This document shows positions 23-21,703 of a DNA stretch of 32,000 nucleotides, in pieces; position 1 is the first letter of the stretch; each line of letters begins with the position of its first letter. Origin of the DNA: Desulfocapsa sulfexigens DSM 10523 (GTDB lineage: Bacteria; Desulfobacterota; Desulfobulbia; Desulfobulbales; Desulfocapsaceae); assembly GCF_000341395.1 (NCBI RefSeq), contig NC_020304.1, forward strand, positions 420,001 through 452,000. The letters run 5' to 3'. The notes under the pieces are model-generated. The model did no database searches, had not been told where the DNA came from, and was given only the letters and a program-made list of their open reading frames with translations. The position numbers were made by a program, and so were the translations under genes.

Positions 23-2467
23 TTAACCGCTTGTGCCATTCAAACCTTTTTTCAAAATATTCTGCAGCTGATCCATGATGTAGGAGGCTTCTTTTTTCAG
101 ATTCTTAAACAGCTGTTCACAGCCACCAAGGTTTCCTTCTCTTCCCTGCGTCTCCAGAGTATTGCAAATTTCGGACATCATGACGGCCCCCACTGCGCCG
201 TTCATTGATTTCATAGTATGGGCCGCCTGGTGTAAGGCTTCGACATCCTGATTGCTGATTGCATCAGCCAGGGACTGCATTAAGATTGGAGCTCTCTCAA
301 AATAGCTTTCAATAATACCCCTGATAATGTCAGGTCCGCCCTGTTGTTGTATTTGGAGGTAACTCTGCAACATTTGAACATCAAAGCGCATTTTTTCAGA
401 TGGCAGATCATCCCCCTCATCATTCTCCCTGACGGTTCCACTCGTCTCCTGCTCCCATCCAGATGCCCATCTACTGAGGACAGAGTGAAGGTCCTTCTGA
501 CATAGAGGTTTGCTCAAATAGTCATCCATTCCGGCTGCAAGACAGCGTTCACGGTCACCACTCAACGCGTGGGCTGTCAGGGCTATTATAGGAGTACGAG
601 AGCTTCCGTTCTGTTTTTCGAACCTTCGTATTTCATCAGTTGCCATATAGCCATCAAGCTCGGGCATCTGGCAGTCCATGAAAATCAGATCATATTTCTT
701 CCGTTTAACTGCTTCAACTGCCTCTCTGCCATTTACGACCAGATCTACCCTGCAGCCAAAAAATTTCAGCATCGCCTCGGCAACAATCTGATTGGTCCGG
801 TTATCCTCGGCAAGGAGTACCTGGTAGTCATATATCCGGTTCTCCAGCACCTGTTCCTCCTCCTGGTATTCTGACAGAGCAGTGTCCTGATCTTGAGGGA
901 TCTGCAAAAGAATGGAAAACCAGAAAACCGAACCTTTCCCGGGTTCACTTTCCACATCAATTGTTCCCTCCATCATTTCCACCAGTTGCCGTGAAATTGT
1001 CAGCCCCAGACCAGTCCCCCCATATTTTCGTGTTGTACTGCTATCTGCCTGGGAAAAGGTGTCAAAGACAGTTTTTATCTGTTCTCTAGCAATCCCGATT
1101 CCGGTATCACGCACCTCAAAACGCAACAGGCATGCCCCATCCCGCAGTTCTACAAGTAAGGCATTAACATTCACACTGCCGTGATTGGTAAATTTAATTG
1201 CATTACCAATGAGGTTAATAAGAATCTGACGTAATCGTGCCGGATCGCCATAGACGATTCTGGGAACACCTTCTTCAACACTAGTGGTCAGGGATAATTT
1301 TTTTTCATTGGCTGCCTGGGAAAACAAATCATAAACGGATTCGATCATCTCCCTGAGATCAAAATTGATTCTATCAAGTTCAAACCTCCCCGCCTCGATC
1401 TTTGAAAAATCAAGAAGCTCGTTGATTACATACAGAAGGTCTTTTCCGGAAGCGTGAATGGTTTGAACAAGCTGTCTGTGTTTCTCTGGCAGGTCTGCAT
1501 GAAGGAGCAAATCAGCCACCCCGAGAACCCCGTTCATTGGCGTTCTGATCTCGTGACTCATGTTGGCAAGAAATTCACTTTTGGCACGATTGGCTGCCTC
1601 AGCAGCGTCCTTTGCTGCGAGCAGTTGAACGGTCCGGTCTGCAACTTTTTGCTCAAGGGTCTGCTGGTATTGTTTAACTTCTTTTTGCGAAGTGCGCAGC
1701 CTGTCTGTCATCATGTTGAAATTCTCAGCCAAAACAGAGAGTTCAAGTCCACCTTCTATTTCAATACGACCAGTCAGATCACCTGTAGCGATTTTCTGGG
1801 TCGCCTTCGTCAGTGTTTTAATAGGGTTCGTGATTTTTCTGGTCAGGAACAGGGTTGCAAGTATGGCCAGGGTAAGAATACTGAAGGTAAGGGTAAAAAT
1901 TGCCCGTATGGCGTCATTAATCTGCTGACGCATGGGCTGTTTTGAGAGAATTAGACGGACGTAGCCGATCACTTCCGGCAAACCACTCTCCAGAGTACCA
2001 TCATCAAGCTCCAATGAGTCACTGGTTGATCCCTGATTGACAATCGGACAAATAAACTGAATATCTTCCTCCTGTTCGAAAACAGTTACAACATCTTCAA
2101 AAGAAGAGTTGTCTTCCTTCGGTCCTGCAGGGAAGTCAGGGAGGGGGGCTGGCTTGAAACCAGTAACATGGTATTTTTCAATAAGTACCGTTTTATCGGC
2201 ACGAAGCAGAGACAGGTAAACGGTTTCTTCATCTGTTATCACTGTTGCATGCTGAAGGCTCTCCCGGTCTTCGGCAAAAACCGCATATTCGCTGAACCTA
2301 GCTATCAGCTTACTTTTTTCTGTCCCTTGAGTCAGCAGAGCTTCAAGTCCGTCAAGGTGTTTCTGATATACTTCAACAGCTGTTATGCATAGACCTGTAG
2401 TCAGAACCAGGAATATTGACAAGAGGTTGAATTTACCAGCTAGACTTGATCCTTTTCTGTGGCTCAT
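23..2467 (-). CDS. Hybrid sensor histidine kinase (periplasmic sensor, HAMP, HisKA, HATPase_c, REC, C-terminal HPt)
   Basis: 814-aa ORF. Two TM helices ([19 protein letters not shown]; [19 protein letters not shown]) flank a ~150-aa periplasmic segment. H-box [10 protein letters not shown] (His codon 1553-1555). G-boxes DTGIGI and GGTGLGL. Receiver [14 protein letters not shown] (Asp codon 674-676) plus SKPL. HPt motif HTMKSMNG (His codon 218-220). SD GAGGA lies ~10 nt upstream of the ATG at 2467. Confidence 0.9.
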
Positions 2468-2483
2468 ATTTTGCTTTTCCTCA

Positions 2484-3440
2484 CTAGTAAACCTCCGCGG
2501 CCTCTTGAATCAGAAGAGGATCAAGTGTCAGGCGAAGATGGTCTGCAGTTTTCAAATTCAGCTCATACATTACCTTCTCGGGGGTGACTGGTGCGATATC
2601 ACTCACCTTCGTTCCAGAGAAAATTTTTTCTGCAATCACACCACATTGCCTGCCCAAATCCATATAATCCCATGTGAGAGCAAAAAGTGCCCCTGCTTTC
2701 ACCCAGGATGAAGAAAGGCCGACGAAAGCAATATGGTTACGGAAGGATGAGAGCAGCACAGCCTTGGCCGTTTTATTTGAATAAACCGTATTGTCCGGGA
2801 TCCCAAGCAACATACTTGCTTTTCGACCAAGGGATTTGAGTGCAGGGGGAAGATCTGTAATCGTTGCCACCGGGATTGCATCAATCTCGATGCCAAACTG
2901 TTCTGCACTTTTTTTCATGACGGCAACTAACTGGCTGTTTTCCTCAGGATTGTACAGTATGGCTATACGGTCAATGGCGGGGAAGAAACGTCGGACCCAC
3001 TGAAGCCGGACCTCTGGAGGATAACATAACAGAACACCTGTTGCCCTGGGAGAGTGAACAAAAACCTGCTCGTTCAACACCATGGCTGCAACCAGTGGTA
3101 CATCGGGAATTGAGTTCAAGCCAACTTGGGTTGCGTTTGAACCAATGGTTAACAGAAGAGCCGGCTTTTGCTCATTGATTTCCTTTATAATTTTTCTGTT
3201 CTCTTCCTCTGTTCTTTGTAAAAAGTAATGCTCAAATCTTGCATCCGGAAACTTCTCAAGCACCTGTTTCCTGAATCCTTCGATCACCAGAATGCAGTAT
3301 TCAGAGTTATGACTGCTCAATGAGACTATGGGCGATCTTTCCATGGCCAAAAGGCCCCGCCAAGCAAGAACAACACAAAATATCACTCCAATCAGGATGA
3401 GGTACAGTGATGATGACCATTTAGGCATTGCTGAACGCAT
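2484..3440 (-). CDS. Periplasmic solute-binding protein of the ABC_sub_bind (PF04392-like) type; no permease or ATPase partner in the window
   Basis: 318-aa ORF with an N-terminal signal-anchor ([16 protein letters not shown]). Family-typical blocks read by eye: [61 protein letters not shown] lies 5 nt upstream of the ATG at 3440. It starts 12 nt after the receptor stop, and its stop lies 16 nt upstream of the kinase start. Confidence 0.7.
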
Positions 3441-3452
3441 TGGATCACCTGA

Positions 3453-5468
3453 TTAAAATGAATAATCGAGTTTAACTCTAAATGTACGACCATCCTGATC
3501 AATGGCGTCCTGATAATGTTCTTCCGAAGCGGGATAGGCATATTTTCGATCGAAAAGGTTGTATATGCTTGCTGACAAGGTCACACCTTTAATCACATTC
3601 TTGCTGAGAAAAGTAAGATTTGTCAGGAAAAAATCATCGGTCATATTCTCATTTAATGTCTTACGCCCACTTTCATATTGCACTTCCAGGCCTGCCATCA
3701 GTTTGTTTTCTAAAAGAGGAATCATGACATTAGCCTTAGCCATATTGAGCGGTGAATTAACCATCCTTTCACCAGTCGATTTGTTTTTGGCGTTCTGGTA
3801 GGAATAACTGACTGATCCAGCCCACCCGTTATCCCAACGCCCCTCAATCTGAACCTCTCCTCCCATGGCTTCTGCCTTCCCTAGATTTTTAAAAACAAGC
3901 AGTTCATCGGCAGGGTCTGTGGTCAGGACAAGCAGGTCTTTAATCTTGTTATGGTAGGCTGAAAATACTGCCCGTGTATTCTCAGTAATTTTTTGCTCTA
4001 CTATGACCTCAAAGGTTTCAATGGTCTCAGGAACGAGATTATCAGCAAGCTTCTGTGTGATATCTCCGTCGTGGTAATAGAGTTCATATGCATTGGGTGC
4101 TCTAAAAGCGGTACCATAGAGCAGTTTCAGATTAGTTCGGGAAAGAGGCGTATAGATGAGGGCAATCCTGGGATTTGTAGTGGAACCAACTGTATCGAAA
4201 TAGTCGTAGCGGACTCCCAGATTAAGAAACAGATTATTCAGAATCCTGATTTCATCCTGCAGAAAAAACGCCCAGGTAAAATCGTTTGATTTGGAATCAA
4301 GATACAGCTCATAGGCATCCCATTCTTCCTGCTCCTGACGCAGACTGTCACGAAGTTCTGCTCCAAAGGTCAGTTTTTGCCCTTCAAGCAGGGAAAGAGT
4401 TGCTGAAGCTTCAGCTCCCCACCATCTGCCCATGGCCCAGTCAGAAAATTTCTGGAGATCTGAGAGATCACCTTCTTCGGAGTAGTCAACGATCCAGTCG
4501 CCATCATATTGATACTGGTCATAGTAGAGACGACCAGTCAATTCGATTGAACTCTCTGTTAAATGTTCGTATTTAAGATCAAGATATGAGTGTTTATCCC
4601 AGGTGCGGGTACCGGAATCATTGAATACCGTATCATAGGGTGCTGTTGGAACGCCTTTCTCCCGATTCACATATGCGCCTTCCAGAGTAAAATCACCAAA
4701 AGAAAGTTTGCCAAAAAGGTTCTGGAAGTTTTCATCATCAGCTCCGGCTGCAATGCCATGGTTACTGGCTGGATCATCAAATGCCTCAAAGTAAAGATCA
4801 TCCCCGTTGCTGTCGTGGTAAGTACCTGAGATAAGTAGCTCGAAGCCGTTAGCAAAACGTTTTCCGTAACTCAGGCGTCCCTGGTAACGATCGAAACTGC
4901 CGGCTGCTCCTGAAACTTCACCCCCTTGAAAATCCCGGCCTTTTTTGGTTATCACATTGACCACTCCAAAAAAAGCACTGTTACCGTACAGGGATGAGCC
5001 TGGCCCGCGCACCACCTCAACTCGATCGATAAGATCAACATCCAGGATAAAGCCACCATCAATGTAGCCACTGTCGTAGATGTTGTCATTCATCCGGTGA
5101 CCATCGACCAGTTGTAGAAACTTGCTGTTATAATCTCCTCCAATACTGAAACCACGTGAACCGGAATACCCGTAGTTACGATCATAATTCAGATAAAATC
5201 CGGGTAAACTGTTGAGGATATCGGCAAGTGTCCTATACCCATATCGCTGGATTTCCCTGGCAGTAACGATACTGATTCTGGCTGGTGCTTCGGTAACTTT
5301 CTGGTCGTATTTAGAAGCTGAGTAGACTGAGGCAATGTCCTGAAAGAGTATTTCTTCGCTTGCCACTTCACCCAATCCCAGATCATCTGACTGAGCCATT
5401 CCTGAGACAGGCCAGGCCAGAGTAGACAAAGCAAAAAGCATACCTGCGACTTTACAGTACGATTTCAT
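3453..5468 (-). CDS. TonB-dependent outer-membrane receptor
   Basis: Signal peptide MKSYCKVAGMLFALSTLAWPVSGMAQ. Plug-domain blocks (VTEAPARISIVTAREI, LPGFYL, RGPGSSLYGNSAFFGVVNVITK). Long beta-barrel ending in the terminal Phe motif (RVKLDYSF). I prefer the ATG at 5468 (SD AAGGGA 7 nt upstream) over the TTG at 5486 used in the ORF track. Confidence 0.85.
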   Translation of the reverse strand: MKSYCKVAGMLFALSTLAWPVSGMAQSDDLGLGEVASEEILFQDIASVYSASKYDQKVTEAPARISIVTAREIQRYGYRTLADILNSLPGFYLNYDRNYGYSGSRGFSIGGDYNSKFLQLVDGHRMNDNIYDSGYIDGGFILDVDLIDRVEVVRGPGSSLYGNSAFFGVVNVITKKGRDFQGGEVSGAAGSFDRYQGRLSYGKRFANGFELLISGTYHDSNGDDLYFEAFDDPASNHGIAAGADDENFQNLFGKLSFGDFTLEGAYVNREKGVPTAPYDTVFNDSGTRTWDKHSYLDLKYEHLTESSIELTGRLYYDQYQYDGDWIVDYSEEGDLSDLQKFSDWAMGRWWGAEASATLSLLEGQKLTFGAELRDSLRQEQEEWDAYELYLDSKSNDFTWAFFLQDEIRILNNLFLNLGVRYDYFDTVGSTTNPRIALIYTPLSRTNLKLLYGTAFRAPNAYELYYHDGDITQKLADNLVPETIETFEVIVEQKITENTRAVFSAYHNKIKDLLVLTTDPADELLVFKNLGKAEAMGGEVQIEGRWDNGWAGSVSYSYQNAKNKSTGERMVNSPLNMAKANVMIPLLENKLMAGLEVQYESGRKTLNENMTDDFFLTNLTFLSKNVIKGVTLSASIYNLFDRKYAYPASEEHYQDAIDQDGRTFRVKLDYSF

Positions 5469-5746
5469 AACAATTCCCTTCTGCAAATAGCCGGATTAAT
5501 ATCTATCTGGTACAACATTTCCAGTTCATACGTTATGGTACATGGAGGAGCACGGTTATTGCGTCCATTTTTCCAGGTACAACTCTTAAGCATCCTCACT
5601 TATAAGTCTATCACAGGACCCCTCCGACATTCAAGAGAGGCAGATCATTCTCCTGACTCTTACAGAGAAATATTGCTTTTCCCCTCTCTCGTGCTACCAT
5701 TGAAAAGTTGCATCAACAAAGAACCTTATCGATTGGAAGTGAAACC

Positions 5747-6442
5747 ATGAAATCATTGTCTGTCTTCTGTGTAAGTCTTTGCTGCACCGTAATGAGTTAC
5801 CTGCCATCCGCCTATGCAGTTGACGCCAGGTGGCATTTCATCGACACCTTTGAAGGGGTGAATCTCTATCGTGCCCAGGAAAACAAGGAAGGGCTTCTCC
5901 CCTTTAAAGCCACAGCGGAGCTTGACATCCCCTATCAACAGATAGTTAAGACCCTCGTCGATACCGAAAAAAAACAGCAGTGGGCACCAAAACTCAAATC
6001 AACGACCATTCACAATCAATTTTCAGCAAACCGTTTCGAGTACAGCGAATACTACACCACACCCTGGCCTTTTGAAGATCGGGAATTCCTGCTCATGGGT
6101 ACAGTGACATACGAAAAGGATCAGATCCTCTTTTCAGGAGTGAACTCTACAAATAAGGCCCTGGCTGCTGATGATCACACCCTGGCTAACGTCGATATTC
6201 TTGAATTTGCAATCTTTCCATTGGATGCACAGCGCAGCCGGGTAGAATTCACCTTTTCCGGCGATATGGGCGGCTGGATTCCGGATTTCGTCAAGACAAT
6301 TATCCAAAAGAAATGGCCGGTACGGTTCATCCAGGCCCTGCAAAGCTATATTAACGAAAACCCAAGCCTTGACACTCTGAGATATAAGAATTTAGAGAAA
6401 GGTGAGGTGGTCTTTTCAACCAGACTGTCCACCCAGTCATAA
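5747..6442 (+). CDS. Secreted START/SRPBCC-fold (lipid-binding type) domain protein
   Basis: Internal ATG at 5747 gives the signal peptide MKSLSVFCVSLCCTVMSYLPSAYA. START-like blocks: PWPFEDREFLLMGTV and GDMGGWIPDFVKTIIQKKWP. The 13-aa extension in the ORF track has no signal-peptide character. Confidence 0.6.
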   Translation: MKSLSVFCVSLCCTVMSYLPSAYAVDARWHFIDTFEGVNLYRAQENKEGLLPFKATAELDIPYQQIVKTLVDTEKKQQWAPKLKSTTIHNQFSANRFEYSEYYTTPWPFEDREFLLMGTVTYEKDQILFSGVNSTNKALAADDHTLANVDILEFAIFPLDAQRSRVEFTFSGDMGGWIPDFVKTIIQKKWPVRFIQALQSYINENPSLDTLRYKNLEKGEVVFSTRLSTQS

Positions 6443-12195: not shown

Positions 12196-13284
12196 TTAGG
12201 ACTCGCCGTATTCCTGCTCATCAATGTACTGCACACCTTCCATAATAAGGCCCATGAAACCGCCGAAGGGTGGTTGGTTTTCCAATTCCATGGGAAGCCC
12301 CTTGGTGTAGGAAAAGTGGCCATCTTTCTTTGCCAGCAGTGAGAAAAGAGCTTCCTTATCCTTGAGACCACGGTATCGGATCTGGATCAGTTCGCCTTCA
12401 TTAAAAAAGACTGTGGCTTTGGCATCATCAAAAAGCAATTCTATGCGCCCCGTCTTCTGGCTGGTATTCATCAGCTGCAGGAGTTCCACGATACTTATCT
12501 CATCAAGTTCTCCAGACATTCCTGAAGTGATATTACCGGAACGCAGAGCCATGGCCTGGGCACGATCCACGAGCATTTTCAGGAGAAACAACTGCAATAC
12601 CGGATATTTTTTCAACACATGTTTGAAATTTTTAATACTTAAAAGCGCTGCCTCCGTTTCACGGAGGGAATGGATAGAGCAGGAAACCGGTTCACCGGAC
12701 AAGAGACTCATTTCACCAAATATTTCTCCCCTTCCCATTTCTGCCAGTCGCAAACCATCATCTCCGATAACACCAACCTTTCCGGAAAGTAAGATAAAAA
12801 GATGGGCACCGGGTTCTCCTTTCTTCAATACGATTTTATCTTTAGGGTAGGCCTTGAGTTCCAGAAGTTCAGCAAGATCGTAGAGGGCACCATCGTCCAG
12901 AGATTCAAAGAGCTGGAAGTCACGCAGCTTACTGTAGAATCTGTCGAGATGTTTCTTTCGTCTCAGCTCCTCCGCCTCGGAAAGAAGCTTCATCTGCAGG
13001 GTGGAAAACCCTTTGGCCTTCTTATATTCAAACTGGAGCATCCCCTGGCAGCCGCCACAGGAAAATTTGGCCCTTTTCGCACCCAGTTGGGAAAACTGTT
13101 GAAAACTCTCTTTCTTAGCAGTTATCTCAATGAGTTTTTCAACAAGAATCATACAGACCGGTTTTGCTTCCGGCAGGACGGCGCAGAGTTCCTCCACCTT
13201 CAGTTCTTCACCAGCATTATAATGCGGACAGGATCGCTCTTCAGTAACAACGAAAATGGCATCACGGAATTTTTTTTGCTGCAC
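12196..13284 (-). CDS. Cyclic-nucleotide-binding protein with a Cys-containing N-terminal domain and a DUF4388/PatA-N-like C-terminal domain
   Basis: cNMP-binding block GEPGAHLFILLSGKV...GEIFGEMSLLSGEPVSCSI. C-terminal block GELDEISIVELLQLMNTSQKTGRIEL...ATVFFNEGELI resembles DUF4388. The N-terminal ~95 aa carry Cys19, Cys34, Cys44 and CGGC. GTG start at 13284, with SD AGGAGG (13289-13294) 4 nt upstream. Confidence 0.8.
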   Translation of the reverse strand: MQQKKFRDAIFVVTEERSCPHYNAGEELKVEELCAVLPEAKPVCMILVEKLIEITAKKESFQQFSQLGAKRAKFSCGGCQGMLQFEYKKAKGFSTLQMKLLSEAEELRRKKHLDRFYSKLRDFQLFESLDDGALYDLAELLELKAYPKDKIVLKKGEPGAHLFILLSGKVGVIGDDGLRLAEMGRGEIFGEMSLLSGEPVSCSIHSLRETEAALLSIKNFKHVLKKYPVLQLFLLKMLVDRAQAMALRSGNITSGMSGELDEISIVELLQLMNTSQKTGRIELLFDDAKATVFFNEGELIQIRYRGLKDKEALFSLLAKKDGHFSYTKGLPMELENQPPFGGFMGLIMEGVQYIDEQEYGES

Positions 13285-16740: not shown

Positions 16741-17040
16741 ATATTCTTCAAAACAAAAAGTTACGGAAAACTCACAAACTATACGCTCTCTTACCACATT
16801 CATCATTTATGGCCAAGCACTGACACTTCCAATTCAGCTACGGCATACTAGTATATACTTTTCTCAGATGGGAACAGCAAAAACATGAATTTCCTTGAAT
16901 CACCCGAAATAACTGAACAATCACAAGACTATCATCGGAGTTACATTTATCATATCAACAAGTTAAAGCTGATTTTCATTTCATTTTCCATGGGAATTTG
17001 CTAACATTTTATTTTCAGGGGTTTTCTTCATAAACCAAAC

Positions 17041-18270
17041 ATGACAGCTCTTCCCACAATGCAGGTATCTGTGCCAATGAATCATCATGACAAGGCTGAT
17101 TTTCCCTTAGACAAAGAGCTCCTGCAACAAAAGATTCTCCTCTCACTCAGCAGTAACCCCGGTGACTCCACGGTGCAGTGCCGTTGCCTGCAACCCCTTC
17201 TTGAAAGTATGAAAAAAGAAGCCTGCGAGCTCATACTTTACAATCTTGTGCAACTGAACTTTACCCGGGATAATGCCTGTAAACATTGGGATGCCATTGT
17301 CAAACATGCCGAAACAATGCAAAACATTCTGAACCGCAAGGTAGGCCTGGCCACTGCCGCCTGTGACTATTTCAGTACCGTAGAGCCATACCTCAACAAC
17401 CCCAAACTCATAGAATTCAAGCGCTACGAAGAAACTCTCAAGTCAGCCCGCCATGACTTCCTTACAGGATTACTGAGTCGAGGGGCATTTCAGGATTTAT
17501 TTGACCAGGAAATGTCGCGAGCCACACGACACAACCACAATACAACCCTTATTTTTCTCGATCTGGACAATTTCAAAGAGACAAATGACCTCCATGGTCA
17601 CCTTGCAGGAGACAGTGTCCTCAGGCAGGTTGGCGAAATAATCATCAATTCAAAGCGTAAAGAAGATCTCGCTTGCCGCTTTGGCGGGGACGAATTTGTA
17701 ATCCTGCTTCCGGAAACAAATAAATTCATGGGATTGCTGGTGGGAAAAAAGCTTCTGGATCAGATTAATACTCTGGTTATTCACCATGGGGAAGAGGACA
17801 TTTCCGTTACCTGTAGTGGTGGCCTGGCCTCTTTCCCTCTGGACAGTCGCAACGGGAAAGAGCTGCTTTTCTGTGCAGATCGTGCCCTCTATCAGGCGAA
17901 AAGTCGTGGCAAACATGAACTCAACCTCTTTGCAGAAGAAAAAAGAGTCTTCACAAGAATTCATTTTGAACAGGATATCACCATACGACCATTGGGAAAC
18001 AGCAAAGAGGACGGAACCAGCAAATCAAAAAATCTCAGCGAATGTGGCATTCTTATTTCCAGCAGCAGTAGCTATCACATCGGAACACTGCTGGAATTAA
18101 CAATCCCCATACAGAAAAATTCAATTCTGACAATAACTGGTTCTGTGGTACGGGTGGAACAGTTCGACACCGACCTCTTTGACATAGGACTCAGCTTCCT
18201 CCAACATGATTCCAACAGTGATACCACCAAGGCTATTGCTGACCATATCATACAACAACTTGCGCAGTAA
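17041..18270 (+). CDS. Diguanylate cyclase (GGDEF with I-site) fused to a C-terminal PilZ domain
   Basis: GGDEF at 17683-17697. I-site RKED at 17656-17667 has the same spacing as the I-site as I recall it from PleD (RxxD-x3-Rx-GGDEF). PilZ motifs are RVFTR (17944-17958) and NLSECG (18031-18048). The N-terminal ~145 aa are an unassigned helical domain. Confidence 0.9.
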   Translation: MTALPTMQVSVPMNHHDKADFPLDKELLQQKILLSLSSNPGDSTVQCRCLQPLLESMKKEACELILYNLVQLNFTRDNACKHWDAIVKHAETMQNILNRKVGLATAACDYFSTVEPYLNNPKLIEFKRYEETLKSARHDFLTGLLSRGAFQDLFDQEMSRATRHNHNTTLIFLDLDNFKETNDLHGHLAGDSVLRQVGEIIINSKRKEDLACRFGGDEFVILLPETNKFMGLLVGKKLLDQINTLVIHHGEEDISVTCSGGLASFPLDSRNGKELLFCADRALYQAKSRGKHELNLFAEEKRVFTRIHFEQDITIRPLGNSKEDGTSKSKNLSECGILISSSSSYHIGTLLELTIPIQKNSILTITGSVVRVEQFDTDLFDIGLSFLQHDSNSDTTKAIADHIIQQLAQ

Positions 18271-18302
18271 CCGCTACTGTCACCTTAACCGAAAAGGCTA
18301 CT

Positions 18303-20474
18303 GTGAATACTCAAGAACTCAGCCAGGCACAGAAAAAAGAAACAAAACAACTGACCGAACTTCTTGCATTCATTTATCTCGCTCTCAAGAACATCCAGAT
18401 CTATCCGGCTGGACATTCACTTGTCAAAAACAGGCTTATAATTGCCCACCAGCATCTCAGCAGGCTCCTTGGCACCAGAAACACAATACTCTTTGGTGTT
18501 GCGAGAAATGTCATCACCTTTAATGAACGCCCCATTGGAGAGGACTCGCAGGCATGCTCTGCACTGGCTAAAATTCTGAGCAGCCATGAAATCGCCTCGT
18601 TCAGTTTCTCCCACGGCATCAGCAAGCATTCTCTCCTGCAGTTTCTTAAAACCGTGGGAGTACTGCCGGAACAGAATCAGTCGGGAAAAACTCTGGGGCA
18701 GGAACTCTCCACGCTCAACCTTTCCCATATCAATGTGGAGTTCATCAATTACAATTACCTGGATCGCAGCAGCAAAAAAGATTCCGGCACAGATACAGGC
18801 GAGCCGCTAACCTGGCTTTCTTTTACCCGGAAATTAACAAGTGGAGTCCTTGGCTATTCTGAAAACGATGAAGAAACCAATTCTGGCAACAGGAGTCCAT
18901 CCCCGGAAGCTCTGGCTGCCGCCATAAACAGACATGCTGCAAGACAACCGGAAATTATAATGCAGTTTGCCACCCTTCTCGACCAAACGTTGAAGGACCT
19001 CCCACAGGAGCAATCTTCTCCAGCATCCTTTGGTGGCCGGGAACTCGATCAGATTCTGGTATCACTCAACCCGAAGATTCGCGAACAATTCATCAATACA
19101 ACTCTTGAACGCTGTGATCAGAATATACGGAGCGGCACCCCCGAAAAGATACTGGAATCATTTTCTAACTCCGTTGTACTGGAAATGGTTCAACAAATAA
19201 ACAAGAAGAATGTCCGCGTCTCTCCTGCGTTAATTAACCTTGTCAGGAAAATTTCCACTATACGATCCACTCCAGGATCTACAACATCTGCAGCAACTGC
19301 CCGGCAAAAAAACGTCAGCAATCTCCTGAACCCGGAAAGCTACAATAAACATGTCGGTTCAGACTACCACGACACACTGCAGCATCTGGCAAAGTCTTCA
19401 CCATCACCGGATATTCTTCCGGAAGCTTTCCCCCTGGATCAACACCTGGAAAGCCTGAGCGAAGATCACTTAAACAGACAAATTGTCCGTGTGACACTTC
19501 TCCTGATGGAACAGACTGTAAATGAAAAAGAATATGAGGCACTCGCCGCAAGACTGATGGAAACATGTTTGGTGCTTCCCGACACAGGAACCTATGAGCT
19601 TCTGGTGACAACAGCCAAAACGCTACAGCAGCAGGCAACGGCAAAAGGAGAGCCCCTCATCAGAAAGACTGCCGGAAAATGCCTTGAGCAACTCACAGCA
19701 CTCGACTTTCTTGACTACATTTATTCAATTCTACCCGAGGCAACTGAGCAGGAAAGAGAAAATGCAATAGAGTTGTTCAAACTCTTCTGCCCCGGTATCA
19801 TTGACAAACTCCTCAAAATATTCTGTATGAAACCAATGATATCCGAGGAAGATCCGCTGGTCCCCATATTCAGGACCTTCAGACTGGATGCACTTAAACA
19901 GATTTTTACCCTGCTCCCCAAAACAACCACCAGCAACATGCGTAAACTCCTGACCCTTGTCGGCTATCTCGGTCTTCAGGGAACAGTCCGCCTCCTCCAC
20001 CCATTTCTGGATAATGAAGATCCGGATATCCGTATGCAGGTTCTCAACCTCCTCCTCCCCATAAATGACAACGAAGCAATCGCCACCCTTATTGCCATGC
20101 TGAAATCGGAAAACGAACACACTATAAATACGGCAATAGAGCTTTGCACTACCCACAATCCACCCGCCTGTGTCCCGAGTCTTCTGAATCTCCTTGAATA
20201 CCAGTTTGTCAAACAGGCAAGTATTGAAAGAAACCGAAAACTCTTCATGATACTCAGTCACATCGGTGATGCCAGGGCTTTGCCATGCCTGGAAAAAATT
20301 GCTTTCACAAAATGGCTCTTCCATAGAGAACAGATAACAAACATGAAACGAATCCTCTTTTATTCTTTGAAAGGCTATAAGAATAAGGATAGAATGGAAC
20401 TGGTGAAGAAGGGAATGCAAATAGACGATACTGAGATCCATAAAATATGTGAGGCACTTCTCCCTGTCCAATAG
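18303..20474 (+). CDS. 723-aa protein of unknown function: N-terminal domain paralogous to that of the downstream HD-GYP protein, C-terminal HEAT/armadillo-like repeats
   Basis: GTG start with SD AAAGG ~7 nt upstream. HEAT-like repeats in the C-terminal third (LLHPFLDNEDPDIRMQVLNLLLPINDNEAIATLIAMLKSENEHTINTAIEL). No catalytic motif recognised. Gaps of 32 nt and 17 nt to the flanking genes. Confidence 0.7.
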   Translation: MNTQELSQAQKKETKQLTELLAFIYLALKNIQIYPAGHSLVKNRLIIAHQHLSRLLGTRNTILFGVARNVITFNERPIGEDSQACSALAKILSSHEIASFSFSHGISKHSLLQFLKTVGVLPEQNQSGKTLGQELSTLNLSHINVEFINYNYLDRSSKKDSGTDTGEPLTWLSFTRKLTSGVLGYSENDEETNSGNRSPSPEALAAAINRHAARQPEIIMQFATLLDQTLKDLPQEQSSPASFGGRELDQILVSLNPKIREQFINTTLERCDQNIRSGTPEKILESFSNSVVLEMVQQINKKNVRVSPALINLVRKISTIRSTPGSTTSAATARQKNVSNLLNPESYNKHVGSDYHDTLQHLAKSSPSPDILPEAFPLDQHLESLSEDHLNRQIVRVTLLLMEQTVNEKEYEALAARLMETCLVLPDTGTYELLVTTAKTLQQQATAKGEPLIRKTAGKCLEQLTALDFLDYIYSILPEATEQERENAIELFKLFCPGIIDKLLKIFCMKPMISEEDPLVPIFRTFRLDALKQIFTLLPKTTTSNMRKLLTLVGYLGLQGTVRLLHPFLDNEDPDIRMQVLNLLLPINDNEAIATLIAMLKSENEHTINTAIELCTTHNPPACVPSLLNLLEYQFVKQASIERNRKLFMILSHIGDARALPCLEKIAFTKWLFHREQITNMKRILFYSLKGYKNKDRMELVKKGMQIDDTEIHKICEALLPVQ

Positions 20475-20491
20475 AGCCTTCAGGAAGAGCC

Positions 20492-21703
20492 ATGATACCT
20501 CTTGGAATCAAGAAGCAAAACAGATCCCAGCAGCAGATCTTCAACACACTGTATCTGCTGAGGATAGTCATCAGCAACACCCGCCTCTACTCCCCCGATC
20601 ATCCAAAAACCATCGAAATGATCGCCGAGGCATACAGAAGCCTCAACAAGACCCTGCAGACCACCAGAGAACTCACTCTCCTGATTATTGACAATGATAT
20701 TATTATTAACGACAAAGCCATTCGTCCTGAAGAAGCTGATTATTTTGCTCTTTTTATCACAGTTCTCAAGCAGAAAGAGATCAGCCACATTGTTTTCAGA
20801 AAAGGAATTACCCTCAAGGAACTGAGCCGCTTTCTCTTCGATCTTGCATCCTCTGCAGGGAAAACCGTATACACCAGCCCTACTATCAGCTCGGGTAAAC
20901 TGGGACTGGTTGAAGATCACAGAAGTAGCTTATCACCAGGCGACCCGCTCTTAGCAACAAACAACCTGGCCAAGCCAGGGGATGAACCCCTGAATCTCAT
21001 CGCAAAATTAAAATCCCTCTCAAACGAACAGTTGGTTCTGGCCCAGGAACTCTACTTCTCCATCAGAAAAAAACAGGATTGCGACCTACGCGGAGTACAG
21101 GACAGCATATCTAACTTTGTGAAGCTTTTTTCAAGAAATCTCAATCCGCTTTCTTTGCTCACCACTCTGAAAACAAGCGATGAATATACGTTCACCCATG
21201 TAATCAATGTTTGTATTCTGACTTTGGCCCAGGCAGAATCGCTGGGATTTACCGATCAGCATCTGTATGACATAGGAATCACCGCCACCCTCTATGATAT
21301 TGGAAAGACCTTTGTCGCTGAAGAAATTCTGAATAAACCGGGGAATTTGGACATTGAGGAGCAGAAACTTGTAAAAGCACATGCAGTAAAAGGTGCAGGA
21401 TATTTACTCAACCTTAATGATGCCCCTAAACTGGCTGTACTGGCTGCCCTTGAGCACCATATCCGTTTTGATGGTGGCGGCTATCCTGCTATCGGCAAAA
21501 CCTGGACCCCGAATATTGTAAGCCAAATGATCGCAATTGCTGACACCTATGATGCCATGCGATGTAGCAGACCCTACCGTAAAGCAAGCTCAGAAAAACT
21601 CATCCGTAACCTTCTGGTGAAAGAAAAAGGATTGAGCTTCCATCCTTTCCTCGTTGATAATTTTATCTCCATTATCTCGAAAAATCAGGTCCTTCCAAAA
21701 TAA
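20492..21703 (+). CDS. HD-GYP domain c-di-GMP phosphodiesterase
   Basis: HD block HVINV (His codon 21197-21199) ... LYDIGK. HHIRFDGGGYP at 21455-21487. IADTYDAMRCSRPYRK. SD AGGAAGAG upstream. Confidence 0.9.
   Translation: MIPLGIKKQNRSQQQIFNTLYLLRIVISNTRLYSPDHPKTIEMIAEAYRSLNKTLQTTRELTLLIIDNDIIINDKAIRPEEADYFALFITVLKQKEISHIVFRKGITLKELSRFLFDLASSAGKTVYTSPTISSGKLGLVEDHRSSLSPGDPLLATNNLAKPGDEPLNLIAKLKSLSNEQLVLAQELYFSIRKKQDCDLRGVQDSISNFVKLFSRNLNPLSLLTTLKTSDEYTFTHVINVCILTLAQAESLGFTDQHLYDIGITATLYDIGKTFVAEEILNKPGNLDIEEQKLVKAHAVKGAGYLLNLNDAPKLAVLAALEHHIRFDGGGYPAIGKTWTPNIVSQMIAIADTYDAMRCSRPYRKASSEKLIRNLLVKEKGLSFHPFLVDNFISIISKNQVLPK

Follow-up and report, generated by a model that had tools for sequence, protein, structure and literature searches.

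Does a run of neighboring genes whose products carry the domains for making, sensing and degrading one messenger form a self-contained signaling circuit? Three genes of Desulfocapsa sulfexigens DSM 10523, here called G1, G2 and G3 in 5' to 3' order, raise this question. We analyzed them in a 32,000-nt stretch of the genome (the window; coordinates refer to it unless another locus is named). A sequence-only reading had described the three as a cyclic di-GMP (c-di-GMP) operon encoding a GGDEF-PilZ cyclase, a 723-aa HEAT-like protein and an HD-GYP phosphodiesterase, and as suggestive of a local signaling complex. The open reading frame (ORF) map bore out the layout, with all three genes on the plus strand and intergenic gaps of exactly 32 nt (G1-G2) and 17 nt (G2-G3), and Pfam returned the GGDEF-PilZ, HEAT-type and HD-GYP domains that had been named. 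Our literature search found no description of a HEAT-protein/HD-GYP pair and nothing specific on c-di-GMP in D. sulfexigens. The genes are as follows.

17041..18270, + strand: G1, diguanylate cyclase with a C-terminal PilZ domain (409-aa ORF; Pfam and NCBIfam)
18303..20474, + strand: G2, 723-aa protein, predicted non-catalytic, GTG start (Pfam HEAT_2, AlphaFold2, Foldseek)
20492..21703, + strand: G3, N-domain, linker and HD-GYP domain, YD-GYP variant (403-aa ORF; Pfam HD_5/HD)

We searched for relatives of G2 (UWK_00371) to see the genes in other genomes. A word-indexed homolog search returned 31 G2 clusters at 48-100 % identity, but the narrowness of this family was an artifact of the word index. 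An exhaustive profile search revealed a far wider family, with 2,624 matches at E<=1e-3, of which 305 reach E<=1e-30 (50%-identity clusters). Nearly all of the top 150 matches are full length at 700-790 aa. Desulfosarcinaceae, Geobacteraceae and a Nitrospirae-labelled metagenome-assembled genome (MAG) are among the sources of the family, whose members carry no annotation beyond “HEAT repeat” or “hypothetical.” Gene neighborhoods were compared in two sets. The close set holds 15 genome loci, all from Desulfocapsa or Desulfobulbaceae MAGs, 14 of which are testable for G1. The distant set holds 80 metagenomic loci (L024-L103), whose ORFs were scored with hidden Markov models (HMMs) built from the Desulfocapsa orthologs. 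Distant relatives share ~20-30 % identity and come from Desulfosarcinaceae, Geobacteraceae and Nitrospirae-labelled MAGs.

The distant loci show clearly which genes belong together. A G3-type gene, with both the N-domain and the HD-GYP domain, lies directly downstream of G2 in 72 of the 73 testable loci. The sole miss, L071, is explained by an over-extended ORF start that hid the G3-type gene, giving 73/73 once it is counted. The two genes overlap by exactly 4 nt in 61 of the 72. Furthermore, four distant members retrieved by independent look-ups (L019, L020, L022 and L023) have an HD/HD_5 gene immediately 3' of G2. Upstream of G2, a GGDEF-PilZ gene was found in 0 of the 45 testable distant loci, and a GGDEF gene of any kind in 2. 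Because the downstream G3 is nearly invariant and the upstream GGDEF-PilZ gene is absent, G2-G3 is the conserved unit: an ancient, translationally coupled, obligate pair to which G1 is a lineage-specific addition. The trio as a whole, which the sequence-only reading had taken as the unit, does not hold up under this comparison.

The loci of the Desulfocapsa group follow the same division. G3 is directly after G2 at every locus, and G1 is upstream of the pair in 12 of the 14 that could be tested. At the two loci lacking G1, nadE is followed directly by G2 (L017), or an ABC-F ATPase and a small protein stand upstream instead (L012). Four loci (L009-L012) carry the genes in a genomic context that differs from the usual nadE/mltG synteny. 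With such different contexts and varied flanks, the pair moves as a unit. Where relatives have inserted genes, these are on either border of the cluster and never between G2 and G3. In L001 (1846-4463), an MBOAT gene and an AlgX-like gene, of the polysaccharide O-acetylation type, are between nadE and G1. After G3, a double-Cache chemoreceptor or a double-Cache hybrid histidine kinase is encoded (L001, 9554-11707; L003, 9393-11828). These border insertions are possible hints to inputs or outputs.

In a few distant loci, other c-di-GMP parts adjoin the pair on the same strand, including PilZ-TPR, REC-PilZ, PAS-GGDEF-EAL and stand-alone GGDEF genes. This suggests that such parts have been recruited repeatedly but variably next to G2-G3. 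The PilZ-TPR and REC-PilZ neighbors (L055, 2603-3352; L057, 1839-2588; L099, 2914-3702; L036, 138-854) are possibly dedicated receptors, or else partners of the solenoid. In L041 (1661-3853), the G2-type gene is split into ORFs of 462 and 258 aa with a PAS-GGDEF-EAL gene directly upstream; such a split points to a pseudogene, a frameshift or a mistake in the assembly.

G2 and G3 are linked by more than gene order. BLASTP gave a weak match between G2 residues 8-131 and G3 residues 7-126 (E 0.012), and hhalign comparison of the ortholog alignments raised this to 95 % probability (E 4e-8 over 107 collinear columns), with all five control comparisons below 2 %. The N-domain HMMs of G2 and G3 also match each other's proteins in the distant loci. 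We therefore treat the two regions as copies of one ~110-aa domain, the N-domain, which on these profile comparisons is paralogous in the two proteins and previously undescribed.

18336..18662, + strand: N-domain copy in G2, residues 12-120 (hhalign, AlphaFold2 domain model)
20525-20848, + strand: N-domain copy in G3, residues 12-119 (hhalign)

Across ~100 loci, the N-domain is confined to G2 and G3 ORFs; six apparent “N-domain only” matches are G3 genes truncated by contig ends. An AlphaFold model of the G2 domain by itself was predicted with a pLDDT of 91 and a pTM of 0.83. Its order of elements is two long helices forming a hairpin, three short strands, a helix, a strand and a final helix. 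The loop of the helical hairpin holds an invariant Tyr and His four residues apart (Y-x3-H) in both paralogs. In G2 the motif is YPxGH, with invariant Y34-P35-x-x-H38, and in G3 the counterpart is YSxxH, with Y33 and H37. Foldseek found no significant fold match for the domain in the PDB (best E 1.3), and matches to PelD, GAF and PAS-like folds, all at E>1, were not used. There is no Pfam or NCBIfam model for it. DUF3391 (PF11871) was considered as an identity for the domain and ruled out, as G3 residues 1-200 have no Pfam match at E<=1. The claim that the three proteins lack transmembrane segments and input domains therefore stands for transmembrane segments and for input domains known to databases. 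It misses what is probably an unrecognized regulatory domain in two of the three proteins, as well as a conserved region at residues 26-130 of G1.

Outside the N-domain, G2 matches only HEAT_2 in Pfam (residues 550-611, 38.6 bits against a cutoff of 27.7). AlphaFold2 predicts a HEAT/ARM-like solenoid over residues ~387-720 (nt 19461-20462), with pLDDT values of 80-90 for the N-domain and the solenoid. The middle of the protein (~150-385) is modeled as helical with low confidence and contains near-invariant motifs, including W171, LNPxLRxQF and Y355. Foldseek matches are generic HEAT/ARM scaffolds (PP2A-A, SF3B1, importins) at E 4e-6 or weaker and with low TM-scores (template modeling scores), and a profile search of the PDB returned alphaRep/HEAT proteins only. 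Neither the structure nor the sequence searches suggested a catalytic signature or a known c-di-GMP-binding motif. G2 is thus modeled as a non-catalytic alpha-solenoid, in keeping with the first description of it, and a scaffold or partner role fits its strict linkage to G3. Among characterized families we found only generic HEAT/ARM matches, and no database family covers G2. A role in anti-phage defense was also considered and rejected, since comparison with the PADLOC models gave no defense-system signature: G2 matched no known system, only a generic HEAT-ARM repeat at 21.7 bits, and G1 and G3 had no match.

G3 belongs to the HD-GYP family, as had been stated, but the role of “breaker” given to it is doubtful in this organism. 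Pfam HD_5 and HD match residues 233-367, within an HD-GYP domain of ~225-395 (nt 21164-21676), and the closest solved relative of the catalytic domain is PmGH (4MCW, E 6e-24). At the HD dyad, where HDxGK is expected, the window protein reads LYDIGK, and the HD dyad is therefore lost.

21293..21295, + strand: TAT codon of Tyr268, at the position of the HD-dyad histidine (PmGH H221, Bd1817 H183; 4MCW alignment, codon read)

This residue is His in 63/63 distant homologs, and in the Desulfocapsa group it is His in 6/16 and Tyr in 10/16. A neighbor-joining tree groups all ten YD sequences in a single clade that lies within the HD sequences, and both TAT and TAC codons occur. The remaining metal ligands H236, D269, H297, H322, H323 and D351 (PmGH H189, D222, H250, H276, H277 and D305) are invariant in 79/79 sequences. 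Because the YD sequences are monophyletic, use both Tyr codons and retain the other ligands, the YD state is fixed and selected, neither an error nor decay. The Tyr state is not correlated with G1, which is present with both HD and YD forms and missing once in each.

The residues for ligand recognition are likewise kept. GYP and the R and Y of RxY[K/R] are invariant across the 63 distant homologs, and the c-di-GMP recognition residues are present in the window G3 as NKPGN and RPYR (criteria from 10.1101/2021.11.05.467447). The counterpart of HHExxDGxGYP is HHIRFDGGGYP, with HH, DG and GYP kept and Glu replaced by Ile. At the position of the third-metal ligand E185 of PmGH, the window G3 has Tyr232 in place of the ligand. 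This residue (Y-T-F) places the G3 family in the Y/F subfamily, for which a binuclear site is predicted and hydrolysis has been tied to stopping at pGpG (PMC4159591; 10.1101/2021.11.05.467447), E185 itself being linked to the pGpG-to-GMP step (PMC4159591). The HD histidine is an M1 metal ligand in Bd1817 (PMC3188283), and the H221A variant of PmGH is essentially without activity (PMC4159591). PA2572, a YN-GYP protein, has no detectable activity and still regulates virulence (PMC3411652), and inactive HD-GYPs work via protein-protein interaction (10.1101/2021.11.05.467447). Since a metal-ligand His has become Tyr and the other metal- and c-di-GMP-binding residues are invariant, the window G3 probably hydrolyzes c-di-GMP weakly or not at all while still binding it.

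Two further positions vary within the family. The Asp of DGxGYP in G3-type genes is Asp in 32 sequences and Asn in 31 (L024-L103 alignment). The specificity residue of RxY[K/R], which the literature links to preference for c-di-GMP versus cyclic GMP-AMP (cGAMP), differs between G3 sub-clades and may be R, H, S, C, E or Q.

G1, in turn, has the features of a working cyclase. Its GGDEF domain spans residues 136-291 (nt 17446-17913) and scores 141.2 bits against 23.8 with PF00990 (E 3e-41) and 157.1 bits against 37.4 with TIGR00254 of NCBIfam. The PilZ domain spans residues 300-393 (nt 17938-18219) and scores 29.1 bits with PF07238 (cutoff 22.5). In the sequence KRKED-LACRF-GGDEF, an RxxD I-site precedes the active-site motif by five residues, and both motifs are kept in the 12 orthologs (RNED in one). 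The PilZ motifs RVFTR (RxxxR) and NLSECG (N-x-S-x-x-G) are also kept in all 12. With active site, I-site and PilZ motifs intact, we predict that G1 makes c-di-GMP and is subject to product feedback in cis. The GGDEF-PilZ fusion is an architecture that has been listed previously (10.1101/814665). The region ahead of it (residues 26-130, window 17116-17430) has 67 % mean identity, compared with 72 % for the GGDEF domain, and contains invariant Cys62 and Cys107 and two more Cys that are mostly conserved. This unassigned N-terminal domain of G1 has no relative in Pfam or the PDB and no homology to the N-domain of G2 and G3. It may serve this sulfur-disproportionating host as an input that senses redox state or metals.

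The start of G1 also needs correction. All 12 orthologs start at a Met aligned with Met13 of the window protein, and the first 12 codons are unconserved. Therefore, the true start is probably ATG 17077 rather than ATG 17041, which would give a protein of 397 aa. The region ahead of the cluster is as follows.

16807..17076, + strand: divergent intergenic and leader region from nadE (- strand) to G1, presumed promoter region (ORF map, sequence)

In this leader we found a single weak sigma-70-like match (16820-16849), which does not exceed the shuffled expectation. No Rfam family or riboswitch was detected in the leader or the cluster at E<=1, and no strong or convincing plus-strand terminator was found within the cluster. 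Shine-Dalgarno-like sites precede G2 (AAAGG) and G3 (AGGAAG). None of the three proteins has a transmembrane-like segment, the maximum Kyte-Doolittle value over 19-residue stretches being 1.41. The adjacency of G1, G2 and G3 is well above chance expectation, and it is plausible that they form an operon.

The cluster is flanked upstream by divergent nadE and a multihaem cytochrome gene, and downstream by convergent mltG/yceG and lon. The gene at 12196-13284 (- strand) encodes a 362-aa protein that combines a cyclic-nucleotide-binding domain with DUF4388/PatA_N, and most Desulfocapsa loci keep it in synteny with the multihaem cytochrome and nadE; its location places a second nucleotide second-messenger receptor near the c-di-GMP cluster. 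Farther away, co-directional genes at 23-5486 (- strand) encode a hybrid histidine kinase (HAMP-HisKA-HATPase-REC-Hpt), an ABC-type substrate-binding protein and a TonB-dependent receptor, and are unrelated to the cluster. A 244-aa ORF with a TTG start at 5708-6442 (+ strand) has no Pfam match at E<=1e-5.

What, then, would the three proteins do together? On balance, we lean towards a scaffold and HD-GYP complex that gained a dedicated, feedback-controlled cyclase. At its core, the G2 solenoid and the G3 HD-GYP protein would form a complex, which we infer from their adjacent and usually translationally coupled genes. As scaffold or regulatory subunit, G2 would position or gate its HD-GYP partner, perhaps because the two paralogous N-domains pair with each other, and the solenoid surface of G2 would be offered to a target. 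The Desulfocapsa lineage placed a soluble GGDEF-PilZ cyclase directly upstream, which would give a local supply of c-di-GMP under I-site and PilZ feedback. In the D. sulfexigens sub-clade, the change of the HD-dyad His to Tyr would make G3 a c-di-GMP sensor or trigger subunit rather than a breaker. The local signaling complex of the sequence-only reading thus keeps a plausible operon and a fitting scaffold or partner role for G2, and loses the trio as a conserved unit and a confident hydrolase. A bolder version, which we regard as tentative and rather doubtful, would make G2-G3 a new class of heteromeric HD-GYP holoenzyme whose N-domains pair a catalytic subunit with a HEAT targeting subunit, a single His-to-Tyr change in the D. 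sulfexigens sub-clade creating a c-di-GMP-sensing switch fed by its own cyclase. We are as hesitant about the claim that this proposed holoenzyme, spread over Desulfobacterota and Nitrospirota-labelled MAGs, would be functionally like the A and C subunits of PP2A.

Several observations weigh against the favored complex. The 80 metagenomic loci came from one peptide pattern and one subgroup, such that the sampling is not unbiased. In the window itself, G2 and G3 are 17 nt apart and do not overlap. Clustering of flanking genes returned no universal third partner, the largest cluster being heterogeneous sensor kinases. A mirror-tree analysis gave a partial r (partial Mantel) of 0.22 for the two N-domains, against 0.53 for HEAT and HD-GYP; all segments correlate at 0.85-0.94 through shared phylogeny, making the test non-discriminating for co-evolution of the N-domains. 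The G3 family as a whole departs from the consensus too, with HH[M/L/I] replacing HHE throughout and Tyr at the PmGH E185 position (Y-T-F in 61/63 distant homologs). Finally, activity is known for a Borrelia enzyme whose dyad is non-consensus (HK-GYP; cited in PMC3188283), and a Tyr ligand or tyrosinate could in principle still hold a metal such as iron, which leaves the loss of hydrolysis uncertain.

Taken literally, the circuit would be an obligate one in which G1 makes c-di-GMP for its own PilZ domain to sense, G3 is an active degrading enzyme and G2 is the scaffold for all three. The three domain types are indeed present in co-directional genes with short gaps, 12 of the 14 Desulfocapsa-group loci retain the trio, some of them in differing contexts, and six of the seven binuclear-site ligands, GYP and RxYR are intact in G3, which the Borrelia precedent would allow to be active. 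We nevertheless consider this circuit unlikely, given that no distant locus among 45 has the upstream GGDEF-PilZ gene, that L012 and L017 lack it as well, and that the His invariant in all 63 distant homologs, whose replacement kills PmGH (PMC4159591), is Tyr here. The absence of specific co-variation between the N-domains in the mirror-tree analysis would sit more easily with a different idea, that the N-domain is a sensor binding a common ligand through Y-x3-H and that G2 and G3 respond in parallel without a complex. Sensing is the usual function of the N-terminal domain in an HD-GYP protein (10.1101/2021.11.05.467447), and the invariant Tyr and His are in an exposed hairpin loop in both paralogs. 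However, genes that always co-occur, and that overlap by 4 nt in 61 of 72 loci, more typically encode subunits made in a fixed ratio, generic sensor domains are usually promiscuous whereas this one is in no other architecture across ~100 loci, and its fold matches no known ligand-binding domain. We judge such parallel sensing quite improbable, and the same holds for its corollary that G3 alters c-di-GMP levels while G2 uses its HEAT repeats to act on another target.

Paralogous N-domains could also work in opposition, with that of G2 competing against G3 homodimerization to form inactive heterodimers until a cue releases the phosphodiesterase. HD-GYP enzymes act as dimers, N-terminal domains have been proposed to aid dimerization in the discussion of DUF3391, and HnoD is a precedent for inhibition within c-di-GMP phosphodiesterase networks (10.1101/2021.11.05.467447). 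Yet ~1:1 co-translation would hold the enzyme permanently off, and a conserved solenoid of >300 residues would go unexplained, which makes an antagonist very improbable. Inherited synteny without functional coupling has in its favor that the wider neighborhood (cytochrome, nadE, mltG, lon) is conserved too in most Desulfocapsa loci. The pair persists, however, at ~20-30 % identity in unrelated contexts and with overlapping stop and start codons (73/73 including L071), and genes have been inserted on either side of it but never within. This linkage in distant loci effectively refutes mere synteny, to which we assign a negligible probability, and the scaffold and HD-GYP complex with its added cyclase is the reading we carry forward.

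To our knowledge, almost nothing is known of how the HD-GYPs of deltaproteobacteria are targeted or regulated. The G2-G3 pair offers a concrete case in which an HD-GYP enzyme may have an accessory subunit of its own, in a group where HD-GYP phosphodiesterases are the predominant c-di-GMP hydrolases (10.1101/2021.11.05.467447). The analysis defines a large uncharacterized G2 family, its obligate HD-GYP partner and a new domain common to both. The sister clades with natural HD and YD dyads provide a ready-made comparison for the step from active phosphodiesterase to sensor, and the sporadic recruitment of cyclase and PilZ genes shows local c-di-GMP circuits assembling around a fixed core. Local c-di-GMP modules and degenerate HD-GYP regulators are already known; the widespread two-subunit architecture, the common domain and a natural HD-to-YD transition beside a recruited cyclase are new. 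We see this as a solid lead for c-di-GMP specialists and not on the level of a new signaling principle.

The closest working precedent for the cluster is the tri-protein complex of the HD-GYP protein RpfG with a GGDEF and a PilZ protein in Xanthomonas campestris, whose interaction needs the GYP and DxD motifs (PMC3749722). The same three domain types occur in both, and the required motifs are present here as GGGYP in G3 and LDLDNF in G1. The output of the RpfG complex can be independent of enzymatic turnover (PMC3749722). There, the components come from three separate, unlinked genes and the HD-GYP protein bears a REC domain, whereas G3 has no Response_reg match among Pfam and NCBIfam models and is not of the REC-HD-GYP architecture. 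Comparing the genes alone, the Desulfocapsa cluster differs in having GGDEF and PilZ fused, a new N-domain on the HD-GYP protein and an obligate HEAT partner.

Degenerate HD-GYPs such as PA2572 of P. aeruginosa, HnoD and ECA3548 regulate via protein-protein interactions without detectable c-di-GMP hydrolysis (PMC3411652; 10.1101/2021.11.05.467447). In PA2572, as in G3, Tyr replaces the HD histidine. PA2572 differs in having a REC domain and in the loss of the Asp as well (YN). In the YD-GYP of G3 the Asp is still there, as are all the other ligands, and some metal binding or activity may therefore be retained. Bd1817, a DUF3391-HD-GYP protein (PDB 3TM8; PMC3188283), resembles G3 in having a ~120-aa N-terminal domain, a helical linker and a binuclear HD-GYP domain. 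However, DUF3391 begins with four strands and the N-domain of G3 with two long helices, Bd1817 has no described partner with a paralogous domain, and its match to G3 in sequence searches is within the HD-GYP region only. PmGH is an active HD-GYP with a trinuclear iron site (4MCW; PMC4159591). G3 has equivalents of its H189, D222, H250, H276, H277, D305, GYP and R314, but differs by Y-T-F at 185-187, Tyr for H221 and the lack of the Glu of HHE, and the N-terminal domain of PmGH is a GAF domain.

For G2, the HEAT scaffold of the PP2A A-subunit offers an analogy, in that a solenoid could carry a binuclear metallophosphoesterase and display it to targets. The likeness to G2 is of the generic fold only (TM-score ~0.2, 11-13 % identity) and carries no claim of homology, and PP2A-C is an enzyme of a fold different from HD-GYP. 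Finally, the local c-di-GMP modules of E. coli, with their cyclase/phosphodiesterase pairs and trigger enzymes (PMC5635695), likewise dedicate a cyclase and a phosphodiesterase to a specific target rather than to the global pool. They differ from the Desulfocapsa cluster in using EAL enzymes and other partners, and neither a HEAT subunit nor a shared N-domain has been described for them.

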